Positions 1 to 7,907 of a DNA stretch of 64,000 bases are shown one piece after another; the stretch's first letter is position 1, and every line of letters begins with the position of its first letter. Location: positions 192,001 through 256,000 of the forward strand of contig CAXXGO010000003.1 in NCBI GenBank assembly GCA_963666835.2, read 5' to 3'. The notes beneath the pieces are model-generated. The model was not told the origin of the DNA. It did not search any database and saw nothing but the letters and a program-made list of their open reading frames with translations. Source of the stretch: Phycisphaerae bacterium (GTDB lineage Bacteria > Planctomycetota > Phycisphaerae > UBA1845). A program made the position numbers and the translations under genes.

Positions 1-2428
1 CCGACAGGAAGACCTCCAGGAAACGTTCCAGGTACCCCCGGCTTTCCACTTCCTGGAGAGCCAGTACGTCGGCGTTAATGTCCCGGATCGCCTGGGCGAC
101 TCGCTCGAGCTCACGGCGCGGTTTGGTCGGAGTGGAGTCGTCGTTGCGGTACGGATCATCGACGTCATCGAAGAGATTCAGGATGTTGAAGGTCGCCACC
201 GTGATGGTATCGCCCAACTGGACCTCGTGATCCGCAAGCGGAGGCACCGACGGCAAATCCTGGAGAAACTCGATCTGGTCGGGCGTCGTCACGTAAATTT
301 GCGGCCGGCCCCCGTAGGTGCTAACCCCGCCGCGAACGCGGACCAACTTGCCCTGGTACATCTCGCGAAGCGGCATTGGGAAATTGGCTGCGAACTGTTG
401 GAAGACCACCACGGAGAACCCTTCGGGCCCTGAGCTGGGGCCGAAGTTCAGCAAGGTCACGCGCCCTTTGGTCAGAACCTCGCGGATCTGGCCATGTACG
501 AAGGCCGTACGCCCGATGATTTTGCCGGCGTCCTGCCAGCTTACGTGCGGTCGTCCCTCGTCCGGACCGATCGCGGGCTGGTCCGCGAAGGCCCCGGCCG
601 TAAGGAGGGTCCAGGCCAGGAACGTCCCCGTAAGGACCCGAACGCTTTGCGTCCTCTGTCCTGCCTTTGGGCGAACGAACGCATGCGACCGGCCGTTACG
701 AATAATAATCACGGTGCACGTCGCGACCATACCCAGAAGCATGACGACAAGGCCCCATGTGGAGACCGTGGGCACGGTGGGGGCGCACTCGTCGGGAATC
801 CCGTCTCCATTGGTATCCAACGACGTTCCGGATTCGATATCGCACTCGTCGGGGATCCCGTTAGTGTTGCAGTCTTCGCTTGTTGAGGCGTCCAGGTCGC
901 AGAGATCCTCAATACCGTTACCGTTGCAGTCGTCAGTCAAAACCTGCGTGCAAGTACCCTCGGGGGTGCAGTACGGGCTGCCATTGCACCAGTCGCCGTC
1001 TTCGCAGTGGCTGTTCTGCAGGCAATCCACGCATCGATCGTCGCTCTCTCGGCAGTAGGGTGTCAGGCACGGCGATTCTCCGGCTTGGCAATCCAACTCC
1101 GGGTCGCACGTCTCCAATCCGTCGCAGAACAACCCATTATCGCAAAGATCATCATCCGGAGTATTCTCGCAAACGGGTGCTACGCAGGTGTCTACGGTGC
1201 AGGCGACGAAGTCATCGCAGTCTTCGTCGTTTTCGCATCCGGCAGTACTGAGAATGAAATCGGCGATGACGGGACGATGATCGGAGGCCATCTGGCTTGC
1301 CCCGCTGGGCCAGAAGTACCCGTCGAGTTCGGACGGGAGCGAATCGGCGGGGGTGCTGCCGCCGGTGTAGAAAACGAAGGCTTGCCGCAGGACAGCGATA
1401 CTGTCCTGCCAAGCGATGTAATCCAGTTTGTTGGTGCTTCCGCTACCGGAGCCCTGGGTACGGCGATAACCGTTGAAGTAGTCTACTGCCGTGTCATAGG
1501 TCATGTCCGAGCGGTCGCGATCGGTCCCGTCGGGAGCCCCGGTGATCTCCGCCATGGTCAACCAATCGGCCGGCCCTTTTCGTCCGTTAGTCTGCTCATC
1601 CTCGTTCCAATCACCGCCGATGATCACGGCTGTCTCGGCTCCTAGAATCTGTTGGGCCGCGGGACTGTCCCAGATCTTGCCGTGCGGGTCCGGGATTCCC
1701 TCACCTGCCCCGTTGTACCAGTAGTCAATCACGTATGCGACTCGCTGAGCAGCTTCCAGACGCTGGGCCAAGTCGTCGGACGATCCCCCGGACTTAAGAT
1801 GAGCGTTGCCGACCACGACATCGCCGACATAGGTTTCATCCGGAAGGTCGATCTCGGCGAACTGGAATCCCCGGATACCGCCGTCACCAGGCTCGGTCAC
1901 ATACTCATCAGCAAAAACGGTAGGGATGTCGGCAAGAGTGTCTTTCGTATCCCCGTTCAGGTCGGCAAAGGGATACCGGCTGAGGATTGCATTGCGGTTG
2001 TATCCGTCCGATTCGCTGGGCACGAAGATATATGGTAAATCGTAATCCGGCGCGAATAACTGTACCCACGATTCCACAGTTGGATTGCCCGTTATGAACG
2101 GGTCCTCCCCGCCGTAGAGGAACAGCTCCAGCACCGTGGTAAGCTCCGCAACGGAGTCAAGGCAGCCGCTGCAGTCGTTGTCCCCCGCCTCCTGAATGAT
2201 GAGCACATCCGGACGCATTCCCGCCACGATCCGGACCAGAGCATCCCAGGTAGAATTCGCGGTCTTGCTGATCTCGGTGCGAATGTCGTCCTCTACGTTC
2301 CAGGTCATTACCCGCAAGTCAGTAGTCTCGGACTTCGACCAGTCCCCGTTGGGTGGGTCCCAGGCGTTTACGTCAAGTGCGATAGTGCCGAACGCGATAA
2401 GCGCGACAACCGTTATGACCTTGTTCAT
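1..2428 (-). CDS. Partial (runs off left edge) secreted multidomain protein: EEP (endonuclease/exonuclease/phosphatase) domain, Cys/Asp-rich stalk, internal IPTL-CTERM-like segment, OB-fold-like region, second EEP domain
   Basis: Absent from the ORF track, consistent with having no stop in the window. Manual translation from ATG 2428 (GAGG RBS upstream) gives signal peptide [22 protein letters not shown] and EEP motifs [34 protein letters not shown]. Later come [14 protein letters not shown] and the second-EEP motifs [12 protein letters not shown] and DVLALQEVE. Confidence 0.85.
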
Positions 2429-2653: not shown

Positions 2654-4741
2654 CTAGATCAACTGCCGTTTGCGGCCACGCATGACCACTGTTCCAACCG
2701 CCATCACGAGGAGAGTCATGACGATCATTCCCCACTCGGATACGGCGGGCACGTTGCCCGATCCGCCCGGAGCTACGGACCCGATATACAACAGCACGTT
2801 GTAGTCTTGGTCCTGTTCGCCCGTTGCTCCGGTGCAAGGCTGCTCGAAGTCACCGTCCTGGTCCGCGTCATAGACGATCTCTGCGGCCAACACGATTCCA
2901 CCAAGGGTGCGCGGATCCGCCGGTTCGATAGTCGCCGGATCAAGGCCCAGGTGGGCGCTCTCGCTGATATTCTGTGACCACATCGTTTCGGACGCGACCG
3001 AGTTGGAGTCCGCGATACCCACGAACGTCACCATGTAGTCGCGGTCGGAGTTCTGTCCATGGAAGACATCGCCGAGTTTGAAGACCAGTTCCAGCTCGTA
3101 CCCGAAGGTAGCAGGATCATAGACGGCTCGTAACAGGCCGGTGGTTAAGTCGCTGGGGTCACCGAAGAGCTCGATGGCCGAGAAGAACCAGACATTGCCG
3201 GCTGAGTCGATCATGGGCGCCGAAACGCTCGGGCCGAACGGCGTGCTCTCCGTAGTCACCTTATCCAGGCCGACCATCCGCCCGATTATGCTTCCGCCCG
3301 GACCGTCCAAGATTGGCTTGCCGCCTCCCGACGTTCCCTCGGTGCCATCGGAGTAGCCGGCCATAGTCCAAGACTGCGTTCCGGTAGTGCAATCCACCCG
3401 AGCTACCGCGATGTAGTTAACCGGCCAGTCAGTCCCACCGTCCGCGGGGTGGTCGACTTGGGCGGCTGCGAGCAGGTTTCCAGCCGGATCGACCCCGAGA
3501 GCAATCTGACCGTTACCACCCCGGTAAGCCACCTGGCTATGGTAGTGATCAAACTCGTTTGTCCCGGCGATGTTGGTTGCCCCGGTGGTCGGGTCGGTGA
3601 TTACTGCTGGAAGCCGCAGCGCGAGTGTTCCAGTGACGTTCCCAGACGCCCCCAGACCCCAGAGGTTCATGAAGATACCCAAGGCGCTGGGATCATCAGT
3701 CGCGGCGTCGCGCCCAATAATCGCGGCGATGCCGTGCGTACTGCTCAGTTGGCTGCAATTGGCGCTTGTGTAGCTGATATTGCCGCGGGTCGAAAGCACG
3801 CCTGTGCCCCAGTGAGTCTGATCGCAGGTAACCGCACCGAAGTCGGTTCCCCGGCAGTACTGTCCATCGAAGTTGACGCCGATGTAGAGCGGAGCGCCAC
3901 CGACGATCGGACCGGGGATCATTCCGGGGGTGCTGTGCACCGTGGCGGAGTTTCGGACGACCCAGTCGGTCACCGCCGAGTCGAACTGGCCACCGGGATA
4001 GTCGTTGCTGATGACATTCAACGATGTCGTATTGCGGTTCGCGGCATCGACCCGGAACACGTTATCAGCGGTTAGGGCGGTCAGCCCACAACCGGCGGAA
4101 GTGCCGTACGCGTCGGCGCGAAGGTGGAGTACTCCCGCAGGATCGATTGACCCGGTTCCGAACCCGGACAGGTTTGATGTGTTATCGCACGAGTTCGTCG
4201 CGGCAACGATTCGTGATACGTACAACCGCGTCGGCGCCGAAGGTTCATACTGCACCAATCCGGCGATCGTGCCGTTGTAGTTGGCCTCATTATCCGTGGT
4301 GGAGTACTCGGCGAAATCCACCGCGAACTTGTTCCCGAGACGCCCGGTCAGATCGATCTGCGTAGTGGGGGCGTCGTTCTGGACGGTATTGACCCCGTAG
4401 CCCGGGGCGTTCCAATAGTCAAACGACCCATCGAGAGTCTGTCCGAACAGTTGAACTCGACTTATAGCTTGAGCACTCATCAAGCTGCCGAAGTAATCGG
4501 AGCTGGTCTTGCTGGACTTGACCAGCGGGGCGATTCCAAACGCGGTACCCCACGACGTATTGAAAGCCGTCAGATCCACGACATAGTCATTCCGCTGTTC
4601 CGTGGTGTCCCAGGGATCTAATGCATCGCCCGGCAGGCAGGCGGTGTTCGAAACACTGTCCGTGGCGAACGCCGGGGATGCCAGAATCAGAATCAGTGCT
4701 AACCCTCTCAAACGACTGCCCATGTCTCCGTACCCAATCAT
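2654..4741 (-). CDS. Secreted protein of unknown function with C-terminal IPTL-CTERM-like sorting signal
   Basis: Start reassigned to ATG 4741 (AAAGGAG RBS). Signal peptide LALILILASPAFA; C-terminus VPAVSEWGMIVMTLLVMAVGTVVMRGRKR. Confidence 0.8.
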   Translation of the reverse strand: MIGYGDMGSRLRGLALILILASPAFATDSVSNTACLPGDALDPWDTTEQRNDYVVDLTAFNTSWGTAFGIAPLVKSSKTSSDYFGSLMSAQAISRVQLFGQTLDGSFDYWNAPGYGVNTVQNDAPTTQIDLTGRLGNKFAVDFAEYSTTDNEANYNGTIAGLVQYEPSAPTRLYVSRIVAATNSCDNTSNLSGFGTGSIDPAGVLHLRADAYGTSAGCGLTALTADNVFRVDAANRNTTSLNVISNDYPGGQFDSAVTDWVVRNSATVHSTPGMIPGPIVGGAPLYIGVNFDGQYCRGTDFGAVTCDQTHWGTGVLSTRGNISYTSANCSQLSSTHGIAAIIGRDAATDDPSALGIFMNLWGLGASGNVTGTLALRLPAVITDPTTGATNIAGTNEFDHYHSQVAYRGGNGQIALGVDPAGNLLAAAQVDHPADGGTDWPVNYIAVARVDCTTGTQSWTMAGYSDGTEGTSGGGKPILDGPGGSIIGRMVGLDKVTTESTPFGPSVSAPMIDSAGNVWFFSAIELFGDPSDLTTGLLRAVYDPATFGYELELVFKLGDVFHGQNSDRDYMVTFVGIADSNSVASETMWSQNISESAHLGLDPATIEPADPRTLGGIVLAAEIVYDADQDGDFEQPCTGATGEQDQDYNVLLYIGSVAPGGSGNVPAVSEWGMIVMTLLVMAVGTVVMRGRKRQLI

Positions 4742-4898
4742 GCCTGATGCTCCTTTCCGTTGTCCATGGTTTTGTTCAAAGACGGCCGGCCTCTCGAATC
4801 GAGAAGTCCGCCGCCAGACCCGTTCGATAAACTCCATACCCGTTAGGCGTCTATGCTCTGCGTCACCGGGCTGTATACCTGCCTCGCTCGCCCGCGGC

Positions 4899-5984
4899 CT
4901 ACGGTATTTCCCACTCCTGCTCAACTGCGGTCATGCCTTCGAGCGCGTTCTCGACCACCGCGCCCCGCGGATACCAATACTCGATCTTCCGCGAATCGCG
5001 ATCGTTCAGCAGCTCGACGTGGCCGTCGAAAAACAAGATGTTCATCAAGCCGGCGTTGTCTTTGGCGTGTCCAGTACCACTACTGTGAACACTATGCCGG
5101 TACGACAGTGCCAGATTCTTGCCGTTACTGGGGGAACCACCCGCACCTGAGCCGGCCCCGTCCCAATTCAACGAGTCCTTGTGTACGCCGTAAGCAGTGG
5201 ATCCTCGCCACCACGCTCCGGATGACGTAAACGACCCGAAGTAGTTCGGGAACGGGCTAACGTCATGATCCAGTAAGAGGTTGTCCGGGAGATAGCGGGT
5301 CCCGTCAGCCAGAAAGACCTTCCTTCCCGGAGTCCCGATGCGATTGAGGCGAGAGACATAGTCGGTAACGCGGACATTATCCCAATCATCCGGTGCCGCC
5401 TTGGCGACGACCTTCATTTGCGGAAAGAACTCCAAGGGGCTGAGCTCTCTGCCCGCCTGGCGCTCGCCCCAATACTGAAAATAGGCGGGCATGAGGTAAC
5501 TGACGGCCGCCCACGAGCCGACCTTCTCGAACTCGGATTTCTCGGATCCGCTGCCGTTGTAATAGGCGGCCGAGTTATACGTCTTTGCGCAGGGGCAGGC
5601 ATAGTAGTTCATCAAGTGGGCGAACCGGTCTGCGCGCCTGACCGGGAGGTTCGGCTCATCCAGAATCGGCGACAGCCAATCGAAGGACTGCACCGGTAGG
5701 AAAGACTCCTGCAAGGCCTCCCCGTCCATTCCCTTACGCGCCCGCAGCGCTACTCCCGACGTATTCAAACCGGGCAGCCAGTCGTTATTGACGTAGGTAT
5801 AGTCCGCAAGACCCGTCGCGAAGCCGTGAAGATGGGCTCCGCACACCACTTCCTTGGCGTGGTCCCGGGCCTTTCGCAGGCTAGGCAGCAGGATCGCCAT
5901 CAGGGCAGCGATGATCGCAATGACGACCAGTAATTCGATAATTGTGAACGCGCTCGAGACGTTTCTTGATCGGCGCGCAAACAA
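4899..5984 (-). CDS. Prepilin-type N-terminal cleavage/methylation domain protein (DUF1559-like, H-X9-DG-type C-terminus)
   Basis: AFTIIELLVVIAIIAALMAILLPSLRKAR...VC N-terminus and RH...NILFFDGHV C-terminal motif. Start uncertain (TTG 5984 chosen; ORF is open to 6101). Confidence 0.85.
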   Translation of the reverse strand: MFARRSRNVSSAFTIIELLVVIAIIAALMAILLPSLRKARDHAKEVVCGAHLHGFATGLADYTYVNNDWLPGLNTSGVALRARKGMDGEALQESFLPVQSFDWLSPILDEPNLPVRRADRFAHLMNYYACPCAKTYNSAAYYNGSGSEKSEFEKVGSWAAVSYLMPAYFQYWGERQAGRELSPLEFFPQMKVVAKAAPDDWDNVRVTDYVSRLNRIGTPGRKVFLADGTRYLPDNLLLDHDVSPFPNYFGSFTSSGAWWRGSTAYGVHKDSLNWDGAGSGAGGSPSNGKNLALSYRHSVHSSGTGHAKDNAGLMNILFFDGHVELLNDRDSRKIEYWYPRGAVVENALEGMTAVEQEWEIP

Positions 5985-6363: not shown

Positions 6364-7907
6364 GCCTCCTCAGCAGAATTTGTGGTGGATTTTCGGTTCG
6401 GGTAGTTTGCCAAGTGCGTGATATAGGGCGACTTCCGCGGCCTTTAGCTCTCGAAAGCCGTAGGCTCTTCTGATGGTCAGTTTGACCTTGTTGTTGAGTC
6501 CCTCCACGATCCCGGACGAATACTGCTTTCTCGCCGCAAACCAATTCAAGATCAGGTTCTCATGAGCACGCAGACTGCGCGCGACTTTCTTAATCGGTTC
6601 AAGCCGGCTGCGCATGGCCCGTTGAATCCACCCCTTCAGAAATCGTCCTGCCCAGTGGTATGACTCGTAATCCCAGAGCGCCTGGAAGCTGTCCTTGAGC
6701 AGGTAGGCCCGGATGCTCTTGAGGTTGTATCGCATCAGTTCGCTGAGCTTGGCTCCCTGTTTGTTCGTCAGGTTCGCGGGACGCTTCAGCAGGCACCACC
6801 GGCTGTGCTTCAGCACCGGGTCGAAACCTTCGCGTGCCAGTTCCTTCGCCTCGGCCGCCCGGACCTCGTCAACCGCCTTGTTCAGCCTGGCCACGATGTG
6901 GAACCGATCCAGAATGTGAATCGCGTCGGGGATCTTCTTCCGGATCACGCGCAGGTAGGGCTGCCACATATCGCTGCAGACGTAACGGATTCCGGCTGAT
7001 CGCGGCTTGCCCATCATGCGAAAGAAACGCAGGAAGCTCTTGGCGGTGCGATCCTGCCCGATCCACAGCAGACGCCGGCACGAGTTCTCAATCTGGTAGA
7101 CCAACGTCAGATACCGATGTCCTTTTTGGAACTGAATCTCATCGACGCCGATGGCGGCGACGTTGTCCAAATCCCGGTGTTTCAGGCCGTATTCGACGAC
7201 CCAGGCAACCGAGCGGTAGACCGTGTCCCAGCTGGTCTTGAACACCGTGGCCACCTCTTTCCAACTCAGGCGGCGCGCCCACCGAGCGAGGAACAGCGCG
7301 TGAGCGTTGGTGATTCGCTTCTTACCGTCCGCCCAAGGCAACAGTTCGACCTTCACGCCGCAATCCTCGCACTTGACGCGGCGGGGTGCGTAGAGCATCA
7401 CAACCGGCAAGGCCCACAGCGGAATGAACGAGAACGATCGTCTCGGCATTCGGTCGTAGGCCTTGCCTCGGCGGCCGCAACCCGAGCAGAACGGACGGCT
7501 GCCGCGTCGCGGCCGGATTTCGACTTCCAGCGTCATGGGATCCGAATCACGGAATCGAACGTCTCCGTAGACGAAGCCCTTGACTTTGTGGACGCGATTG
7601 AGGATGGTCTTCACTTGCATCGTTCGTTTTCTCCGGGTTGATGTCTTCGCAAACACCAATTTACCGGATTCTCGAACGATGCACTTCTTTTGTCCCGGAC
7701 ACAAGCCGGCCTCTGCCCGTTCCGTCACGTAAACCAAACGCTGCCTCCAGGCCCCTGTAGCTCCGTCACCCTCGGCGTCGGTCTCACCCGACTAGGGCCG
7801 ACGCCGAGGGGGACGGTGCGGAAGGGGCCGCCCCGGACAGCTCCCGAGCCGGAGGCCGAGGATCACCTCAACCTATGAAATCCTTCCACAGATTCGGCGG
7901 AAGAACC
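6364..7907 (-). mobile_element. ISL3-family insertion sequence (1544 bp)
   Basis: Imperfect terminal IRs GCCTCCTCAGCAGAATTTGTGG (6364-6385) and the reverse complement of CCACAGATTCGGCGGAAGAACC (7886-7907), 16/22 match. Perfect 8-bp direct repeat TCTTTGTT at 6356-6363 and 7908-7915. Confidence 0.93.
6370..7620 (-). CDS. ISL3-family transposase
   Basis: Zn-finger CSGC...CEDC, IGVDE, CSDMWQPY, LDRFHIV and SSGIVEGLNNKVK motifs. Start reassigned to ATG 7620 (GGAG RBS). Confidence 0.93.
   Translation of the reverse strand: MQVKTILNRVHKVKGFVYGDVRFRDSDPMTLEVEIRPRRGSRPFCSGCGRRGKAYDRMPRRSFSFIPLWALPVVMLYAPRRVKCEDCGVKVELLPWADGKKRITNAHALFLARWARRLSWKEVATVFKTSWDTVYRSVAWVVEYGLKHRDLDNVAAIGVDEIQFQKGHRYLTLVYQIENSCRRLLWIGQDRTAKSFLRFFRMMGKPRSAGIRYVCSDMWQPYLRVIRKKIPDAIHILDRFHIVARLNKAVDEVRAAEAKELAREGFDPVLKHSRWCLLKRPANLTNKQGAKLSELMRYNLKSIRAYLLKDSFQALWDYESYHWAGRFLKGWIQRAMRSRLEPIKKVARSLRAHENLILNWFAARKQYSSGIVEGLNNKVKLTIRRAYGFRELKAAEVALYHALGKLPEPKIHHKFC

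Follow-up and report, generated by a model that had tools for sequence, protein, structure and literature searches.

A single open reading frame (ORF) of an uncultured Phycisphaerae bacterium (genome G000) codes for two phosphoesterase-type EEP domains, EEP1 and EEP2, separated by a sorting tag with its transmembrane helix, a basic loop and a second signal peptide. This layout, an internal tag followed by a second signal, is confirmed as a real feature. As to how it is used, we think it probable that two neighbouring genes for exported EEP proteins have fused, and that the resulting chain would be cut back into two exported proteins. The ORF encodes 1014 amino acids on the minus strand (G000:C3:191384-194428). 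It begins with the ATG at 2428 of the window (the whole stretch of 64,000 nucleotides that was analysed) and, as the original prediction had it, runs without interruption to the window edge, its stop lying only at -616. The order and placement of its parts that had been proposed, from the tag to the D-Q-P sequence at 583, stand as well (Table 1).

Table 1. Parts of the dual-EEP protein, and the gene upstream of it, in window coordinates
Feature	Position	Strand	Basis
N-terminal signal peptide, residues 1-22 (…DVNA/WDP)	2363..2428	-	sequence; hydropathy peak 4-22
EEP1 (residues 23-395), a complete phosphoesterase domain of EEP fold	1244..2362	-	PF03372, AlphaFold, Foldseek, catalytic motifs
Cys/Asp-rich stalk, residues 396-551	776..1243	-	paralogous matches; no Pfam family
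Internal IPTL-type sorting tag VPTVSTWG + transmembrane helix, residues 552-577	698..775	-	hydropathy, profile
Basic loop, residues 578-597, predicted cytoplasmic	638..697	-	6 K/R, zero D/E within 577-598
h/c region of the second signal peptide, with A-F-A at its end and the predicted cut ahead of Asp616	584..637	-	register with EEP2 orthologues
OB-fold-like region of second unit, residues 616-735	224..583	-	PF01336 in orthologues
EEP2, ExeM/NucH-like EEP domain, residues 740-1014	1..211, onward to window -616	-	PF19580, PF03372, motifs
Upstream gene, ordinary terminal IPTL tag (context, control)	2654..4924	-	TIGR04174 over cut-off; stop right after tag

Contigs from all four runs considered (two samples, two studies) span the junction unchanged, with neither substitution nor indel nor stop there; these are assembled contigs, not raw reads, and one of the four runs may be the one from which the assembly was made. 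The sole listed difference among them, a G>C change confined to one sample, lies at window 404. A second assembly encodes the identical 1014-residue protein except for one substitution, P684S. Named homologues of the protein belong to Phycisphaerae or Planctomycetota. On either side of the region lies an ORF that by visual inspection resembles a transposase gene (window 6370-7737, minus strand, and L001:5531-6481, plus strand), the latter splitting a run of ABC-transporter genes downstream of the dual-EEP gene.

The presence of two EEP domains in one frame is well founded: PF03372 matches with 88.7 bits over two stretches, and six catalytic motifs are found in each half. The mature part begins at W-D-P in EEP1 orthologues too. 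The AlphaFold model of EEP1 (pLDDT 90.6) retrieves EEP enzymes in Foldseek, with a best E of 2e-12; at 10-18% identity, these matches of a predicted structure fix the fold, not the substrate. Sequence searches of solved structures with the dual-EEP protein returned weak EEP matches and nothing closer. The stalk (residues ~400-550) has many paralogous matches, and is common to many long ORFs of this family. An OB-fold-like region had also been proposed: PF01336 is indeed found in 9 of 23 EEP2 orthologues, but this protein itself has no Pfam match there. EEP2 scores 46.5 bits with the ExeM/NucH model NF033681, far below the cut-off of 300, and nuclease activity is only a guess suggested by the combination of OB and EEP. 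The domain is 51-63% identical to its orthologues and has no long branch in the tree.

The internal tag was described from the outset as IPTL-CTERM-like, which holds for its make-up but not for its score with the curated family. The I/V-P-T-x-x-x-W-G motif, the helix and the basic residues of an R/K-rich loop are all present, and the helix is the strongest 19-residue hydropathy peak of the protein (2.46). With a profile made from the terminal tags of G000 it obtains 36 bits, within the range of those tags (56 tags; leave-one-out 26-67 bits, median 54), yet it reaches 12.5 bits with TIGR04174, where the cut-off is 20.5. A search of the protein with PF18203 gave no match. Neither is its position terminal, 463 residues separating the motif from the stop. 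Three XrtH-like loci are found in G000 (C1:1743279-1746659; C6:2370426-2375787; C6:1045023-1048800), the best with 81.1 bits against a curated cut-off of 86, and none above it. The two XrtH-like proteins read from these three loci have the Cys, Arg and His, and one of the genes sits after a terminal-tag gene. A gene for a membrane protein weakly like an XrtH-associated family comes next after both XrtH-like genes read, and two of the three loci are at most 5 kb from signal peptidase I or peptidase-like genes. Signal peptidase I of G000 is above its cut-off. The exosortase step on the internal tag would be the weakest of the model, a prediction stacked on a prediction. Near-identical terminal-tag genes of about 477 codons are also present in at least four copies in G000, two of them in tandem (window 57881, minus strand; C1:3851-7453; C6:352342-353775).

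The second signal occupies exactly the place of the signal peptide in stand-alone EEP2 orthologues. Its basic n-region, core and A-x-A site are in register with theirs, with a hydrophobicity at the low end: by Kyte-Doolittle (1.51) it is the least hydrophobic of the 11 compared, and it is mid-range among them on a biological hydrophobicity scale. After Val573 the frame contains no in-frame ATG, GTG or TTG that could start EEP2, so that its production as a separate enzyme probably requires the long chain and cleavage by signal peptidase I. An ACG at Thr593 (window 652-650), in the basic loop, is preceded by an AGGA-type site with an energy of -8.0, which 7% of 1657 randomly chosen internal codons also reach. 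Were it an ATG, it would give EEP2 a normal signal peptide; it may possibly be the relic of a decayed start.

Where does this frame come from? In the family, 39 of 101 genomes match, and G000 alone has both EEP halves in one stop-free frame. Counting fused against split homologues, a check proposed with the original prediction, gives 1 fused in 101 and 11 other genomes where EEP1 and EEP2 are adjacent with a stop between them, which supports the view that the dual-EEP gene arose by fusion of two neighbouring genes. In two of the genomes (G031 and G449) the same tag closes EEP1, and the stop that comes next is separated from the ATG of EEP2 by about 40-65 bases. The length of the loop in the dual-EEP gene is that of such a tail plus spacer, and the loop is likely to be the former stop with its intergenic stretch. 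In the nine genomes where EEP1 ends otherwise than in a tag, the pair is never fused.

A recent fusion by stop loss had been suggested as one of two alternatives, a natural polyprotein being the other. The 11 adjacent split pairs agree with fusion, but recency is doubtful because a second fused protein, P0003 (Logan, 1038 residues; known from one contig, at the protein level only), aligns over its full length to the dual-EEP protein with 55% identity only and groups with it. This grouping has support of 84/82 when both domains are taken together, which is not firm, and single-domain trees leave it unresolved. P0003, the best non-self EEP1 match among the matches listed, has the same order of parts: tag, helix, RLRPR, a signal ending in VHA, and EEP2. 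Its loop, of 5-10 residues, is shorter than that of the dual-EEP protein, it has no Met after the helix, and both fused copies are intact. Either one old fusion would have survived a long divergence, or fusion would have occurred twice. Fused forms make 2 of the 120 long EEP1 homologues among the matches listed, one being this organism's own, and none was found among 64 metagenome loci. Two long EEP2 frames (G340, 842 residues, and G170, 794 residues) were rejected as fusions, their upstream part not being protein-like and a normal start preceding the signal. In P0007 (734 residues), a cytoplasmic RimK-like ATP-grasp domain continues in the same frame into a signal peptide and EEP2, an apparent stop-loss fusion.

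The junction is not a solitary case, which the original prediction had left as a possible objection. Three of the 68 tag-profile matches in G000 are internal, in the dual-EEP, repeat-LVIVD and M14 carboxypeptidase-ankyrin genes, each with a basic loop and then a signal-like segment behind the tag; an internal regular-expression match, APVASAVAG (G000, C3), was discarded as a tag with 1.5 bits on the profile. The second of these genes (G000 C1:489984-494543; L069:4985-9544, plus strand) fuses a repeat protein to an LVIVD protein in an ORF of 1520 residues, in the order repeat domain, internal tag, second signal and LVIVD repeats, without any in-frame canonical internal start. The ORF continues for some 50 residues beyond the usual ...GDCP terminus, which suggests that another stop was lost. 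A fused relative of this gene was sought in the 101 genomes, and none was found.

The carboxypeptidase-ankyrin fusion (G000 C1:194642-197599; L070:5643-8600, minus strand; also L096-L100 and L115) is, judged from these sequences, a better-conserved example of the junction than the EEP gene. It is fused without stops in seven genomes of five genera, at 46-57% identity to G000, and an in-frame ATG is kept at the second signal in all seven, some with good sites. In seven other genomes a tag-ended carboxypeptidase is split from the ankyrin protein, its stop overlapping the start of the partner (ATGA, GTGA or ATG-NN-TAA), so that gaining or losing one or two bases in the tail would bring both genes into one frame. 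Fusion is thus seen in 7 of 14 genomes where the upstream gene ends in a tag, and all 13 genomes whose carboxypeptidase closes with another domain have the genes split, a pattern confounded by spacing (tag-ended carboxypeptidase genes overlap the partner start, the others have spacers) and by kin that are not independent. These counts leave out G024, with its reversed gene order, G448, where the contig ends at the tag, and the partnerless loci of G473, G023 and G454. In a tree of 21 carboxypeptidase domains with six fused rows, the fused ones do not form one clade (p-AU 0.016); the fusion was gained or lost at least four times, and there are two supported fused pairs. G024 (L128:487-3858, plus strand), rejected as a fusion through the tag owing to that order, has signal, ankyrin and M14 carboxypeptidase in one chain without an internal anchor, suggesting that the two may be partners in one compartment.

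Outside these families, P0134 (1373 residues) carries two similar surface-protein units in tandem, the second with a terminal tag, around a minimal junction: tag, helix, KVRFRRRA and a signal ending in ALA, without Met. It was not part of the junction profile, which, in a search of long proteins, gave nine matches from 8000 candidates, namely five training sequences, three terminal-tag proteins and P0134. Over the 101 genomes, a profile of nine junctions put its own nine sequences on top. At the loci from the best 150 of 2246 matches, 53 tags were terminal, one had a 71-residue tail and none led into a second protein. Among the matches listed, junctions of tag plus signal look uncommon across the family.

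How would such a chain be handled? In the Sec pathway, transfer is halted by a hydrophobic helix with basic residues behind it and resumes at a subsequent signal peptide. Sec would thus export EEP1 and the stalk until the IPTL helix halts transfer, the basic loop remaining in the cytoplasm; the second signal would then restart export, now of OB-EEP2. Signal peptidase I would cut after A-F-A, freeing DQP-OB-EEP2, and this single cut would separate both units. EEP1 would either remain anchored by its helix, or an XrtH-like exosortase would cleave it at the tag, as it would the terminal-tag proteins of G000. Because the hairpin restores the topology of both proteins from the time when their genes were separate, a lost stop would cost little. 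By the same reasoning, only upstream proteins ending in an anchor could fuse to a downstream signal peptide without stranding the second protein in the cytoplasm, and fusions seen only after tag-ended genes fit this, with gene spacing and kinship as confounders. For the dual-EEP gene, we regard fusion by stop loss, with the product working as a polyprotein, as the likely route, so that both alternatives of the original prediction would hold. Accidental fusions of this kind have probably become fixed on several occasions within the family.

Other accounts of the frame deserve consideration. The hairpin might be exported with its second signal uncut or partly cut; the product would be a membrane protein with two heads or, once an exosortase had cut, EEP2 attached to a membrane stub. 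The low Kyte-Doolittle rank of the second signal speaks for this, but A-F-A falls at the predicted cut position of the free orthologues, and V-H-A in P0003 and A-L-A in P0134 stand at the same kind of site; we hold it to be unlikely. We give a somewhat smaller chance to tolerated read-through, where EEP2 would come mostly from internal initiation (at the ACG of Thr593, or at the ATG in carboxypeptidase-ankyrin), the fused tail being incidental. The site before the ACG, the in-frame ATG of all seven carboxypeptidase-ankyrin fusions and the repeated gain or loss of that fusion would fit. Against it, P0003 and P0134 have no Met and nearly no spacer, and each ribosome that makes EEP1 must, in the absence of a stop, continue into EEP2. 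Furthermore, non-canonical starts yield 0.01-2% of AUG in E. coli (10.1101/063800).

A harmful fusion would combine a defunct second signal with EEP2 misplaced in the cytoplasm or degraded, in a decaying gene. The weakness of the signal, the loss of a canonical start and the rarity of the EEP fusion in the family are what one would then expect, but the motifs of EEP2 are intact, it is 51-63% identical to orthologues, without a long branch, and the distant second fused copy is likewise intact, which makes this account very improbable. Even further down comes an assembly error that deleted a stop, which we scarcely credit: support does come from contigs alone, one run being possibly the source, yet four runs of two samples agree at the junction, the second assembly gives the same protein with its one substitution, and P0003 is fused too.

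Returning to the polyprotein reading, a wider version of it can be put forward tentatively. The hairpin of tag, helix, loop and signal may be a reusable linker that turns pairs of coupled exported genes into obligate polyproteins, selected for delivering partners 1:1 at one translocon. Its stages, conceivable with the same reserve, would be an overlapping start and stop; a fusion with the second ATG kept, as in carboxypeptidase-ankyrin; a fusion with a decayed start, as in the dual-EEP gene; and a trimmed junction, as in P0003 and P0134. In these last two, and this is just as speculative, the basic tail of the anchor might double as the n-region of the next signal.

Several known systems bear comparison. 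HVO_0405 of Haloferax volcanii is a substrate of archaeosortase A in which a gene fusion placed the tripartite tag mid-protein, and its cleavage was demonstrated (PMC6098224, PMC7157517). As far as the accessible text goes, it resembles the dual-EEP protein in the fusion of two once-separate genes, the mid-protein tag and the exosortase/archaeosortase family; it differs in being described as strain-specific and in having a NifU domain downstream, with no second signal peptide mentioned in that text. In the dual-EEP protein, the tag is followed by another signal and another enzyme for export, and cleavage is predicted from sequence. MXAN_5598 of Myxococcus xanthus has an internal sorting tag ascribed to gene fusion, for which processing was proposed (PMC11980579). 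According to what is accessible of that paper, it shares the internal tag with an exported unit on either side, but belongs to the MYXO-CTERM/myxosortase system and joins an adhesin to an outer-membrane barrel, a second signal peptide not being mentioned there. NF033207, named 'midcut-by-XrtH protein', implies by its name a mid-protein XrtH site, similar to the one predicted in the dual-EEP protein. Yet this model of 175 positions is unrelated to the EEP units: its positions 35-64 weakly match the tag, and it gives 11.8 and 15.3 bits against a cut-off of 45. A literature search on it found nothing among the matches listed. With the IPTL-CTERM/exosortase H system (TIGR04174, PF18203, TIGR04177) the protein shares motif, helix and basic cluster, and G000 has many terminal examples and XrtH-like genes. 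It departs from that system in carrying the tag within the chain and in scoring under the curated cut-off; the XrtH-like proteins of G000 also fall below theirs. In FbcH of Bradyrhizobium (the cytochrome b-c1 precursor) and at the anchor-plus-signal junctions of flaviviruses, signal peptidase splits a chain at an internal signal after a membrane segment; these have no sortase-type tag, and produce subunits of one complex or of a virus, not two free hydrolases. The literature search, from whose coverage most subscription journals were absent, found, among the matches listed, no bacterial polyprotein with a tag plus a second signal and nothing on FbcH, and the term IPTL-CTERM was likewise absent from those matches.

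The value of the finding is tempered by the printed precedents for internal tags. To our knowledge, processing by the IPTL/XrtH system has been untested to date, and polyproteins are thought to be rarely used for exported proteins in bacteria. A mid-protein tag yields two large fragments, hence a practical assay for this processing. It is with such fragments, from the tag of HVO_0405, that archaeosortase activity was reportedly proved. With HVO_0405 and MXAN_5598, other sorting systems already offer examples of internal tags that arose when genes fused. The dual-EEP locus contributes, as far as its sequences can be read, successive stages in a single family, together with two fused copies without a canonical second start. 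If the chain is cut as predicted, such genes would be mis-annotated as single multidomain proteins, and the family would illustrate a simple path from operon to polyprotein, akin to the anchor-plus-signal junctions of enveloped viruses.
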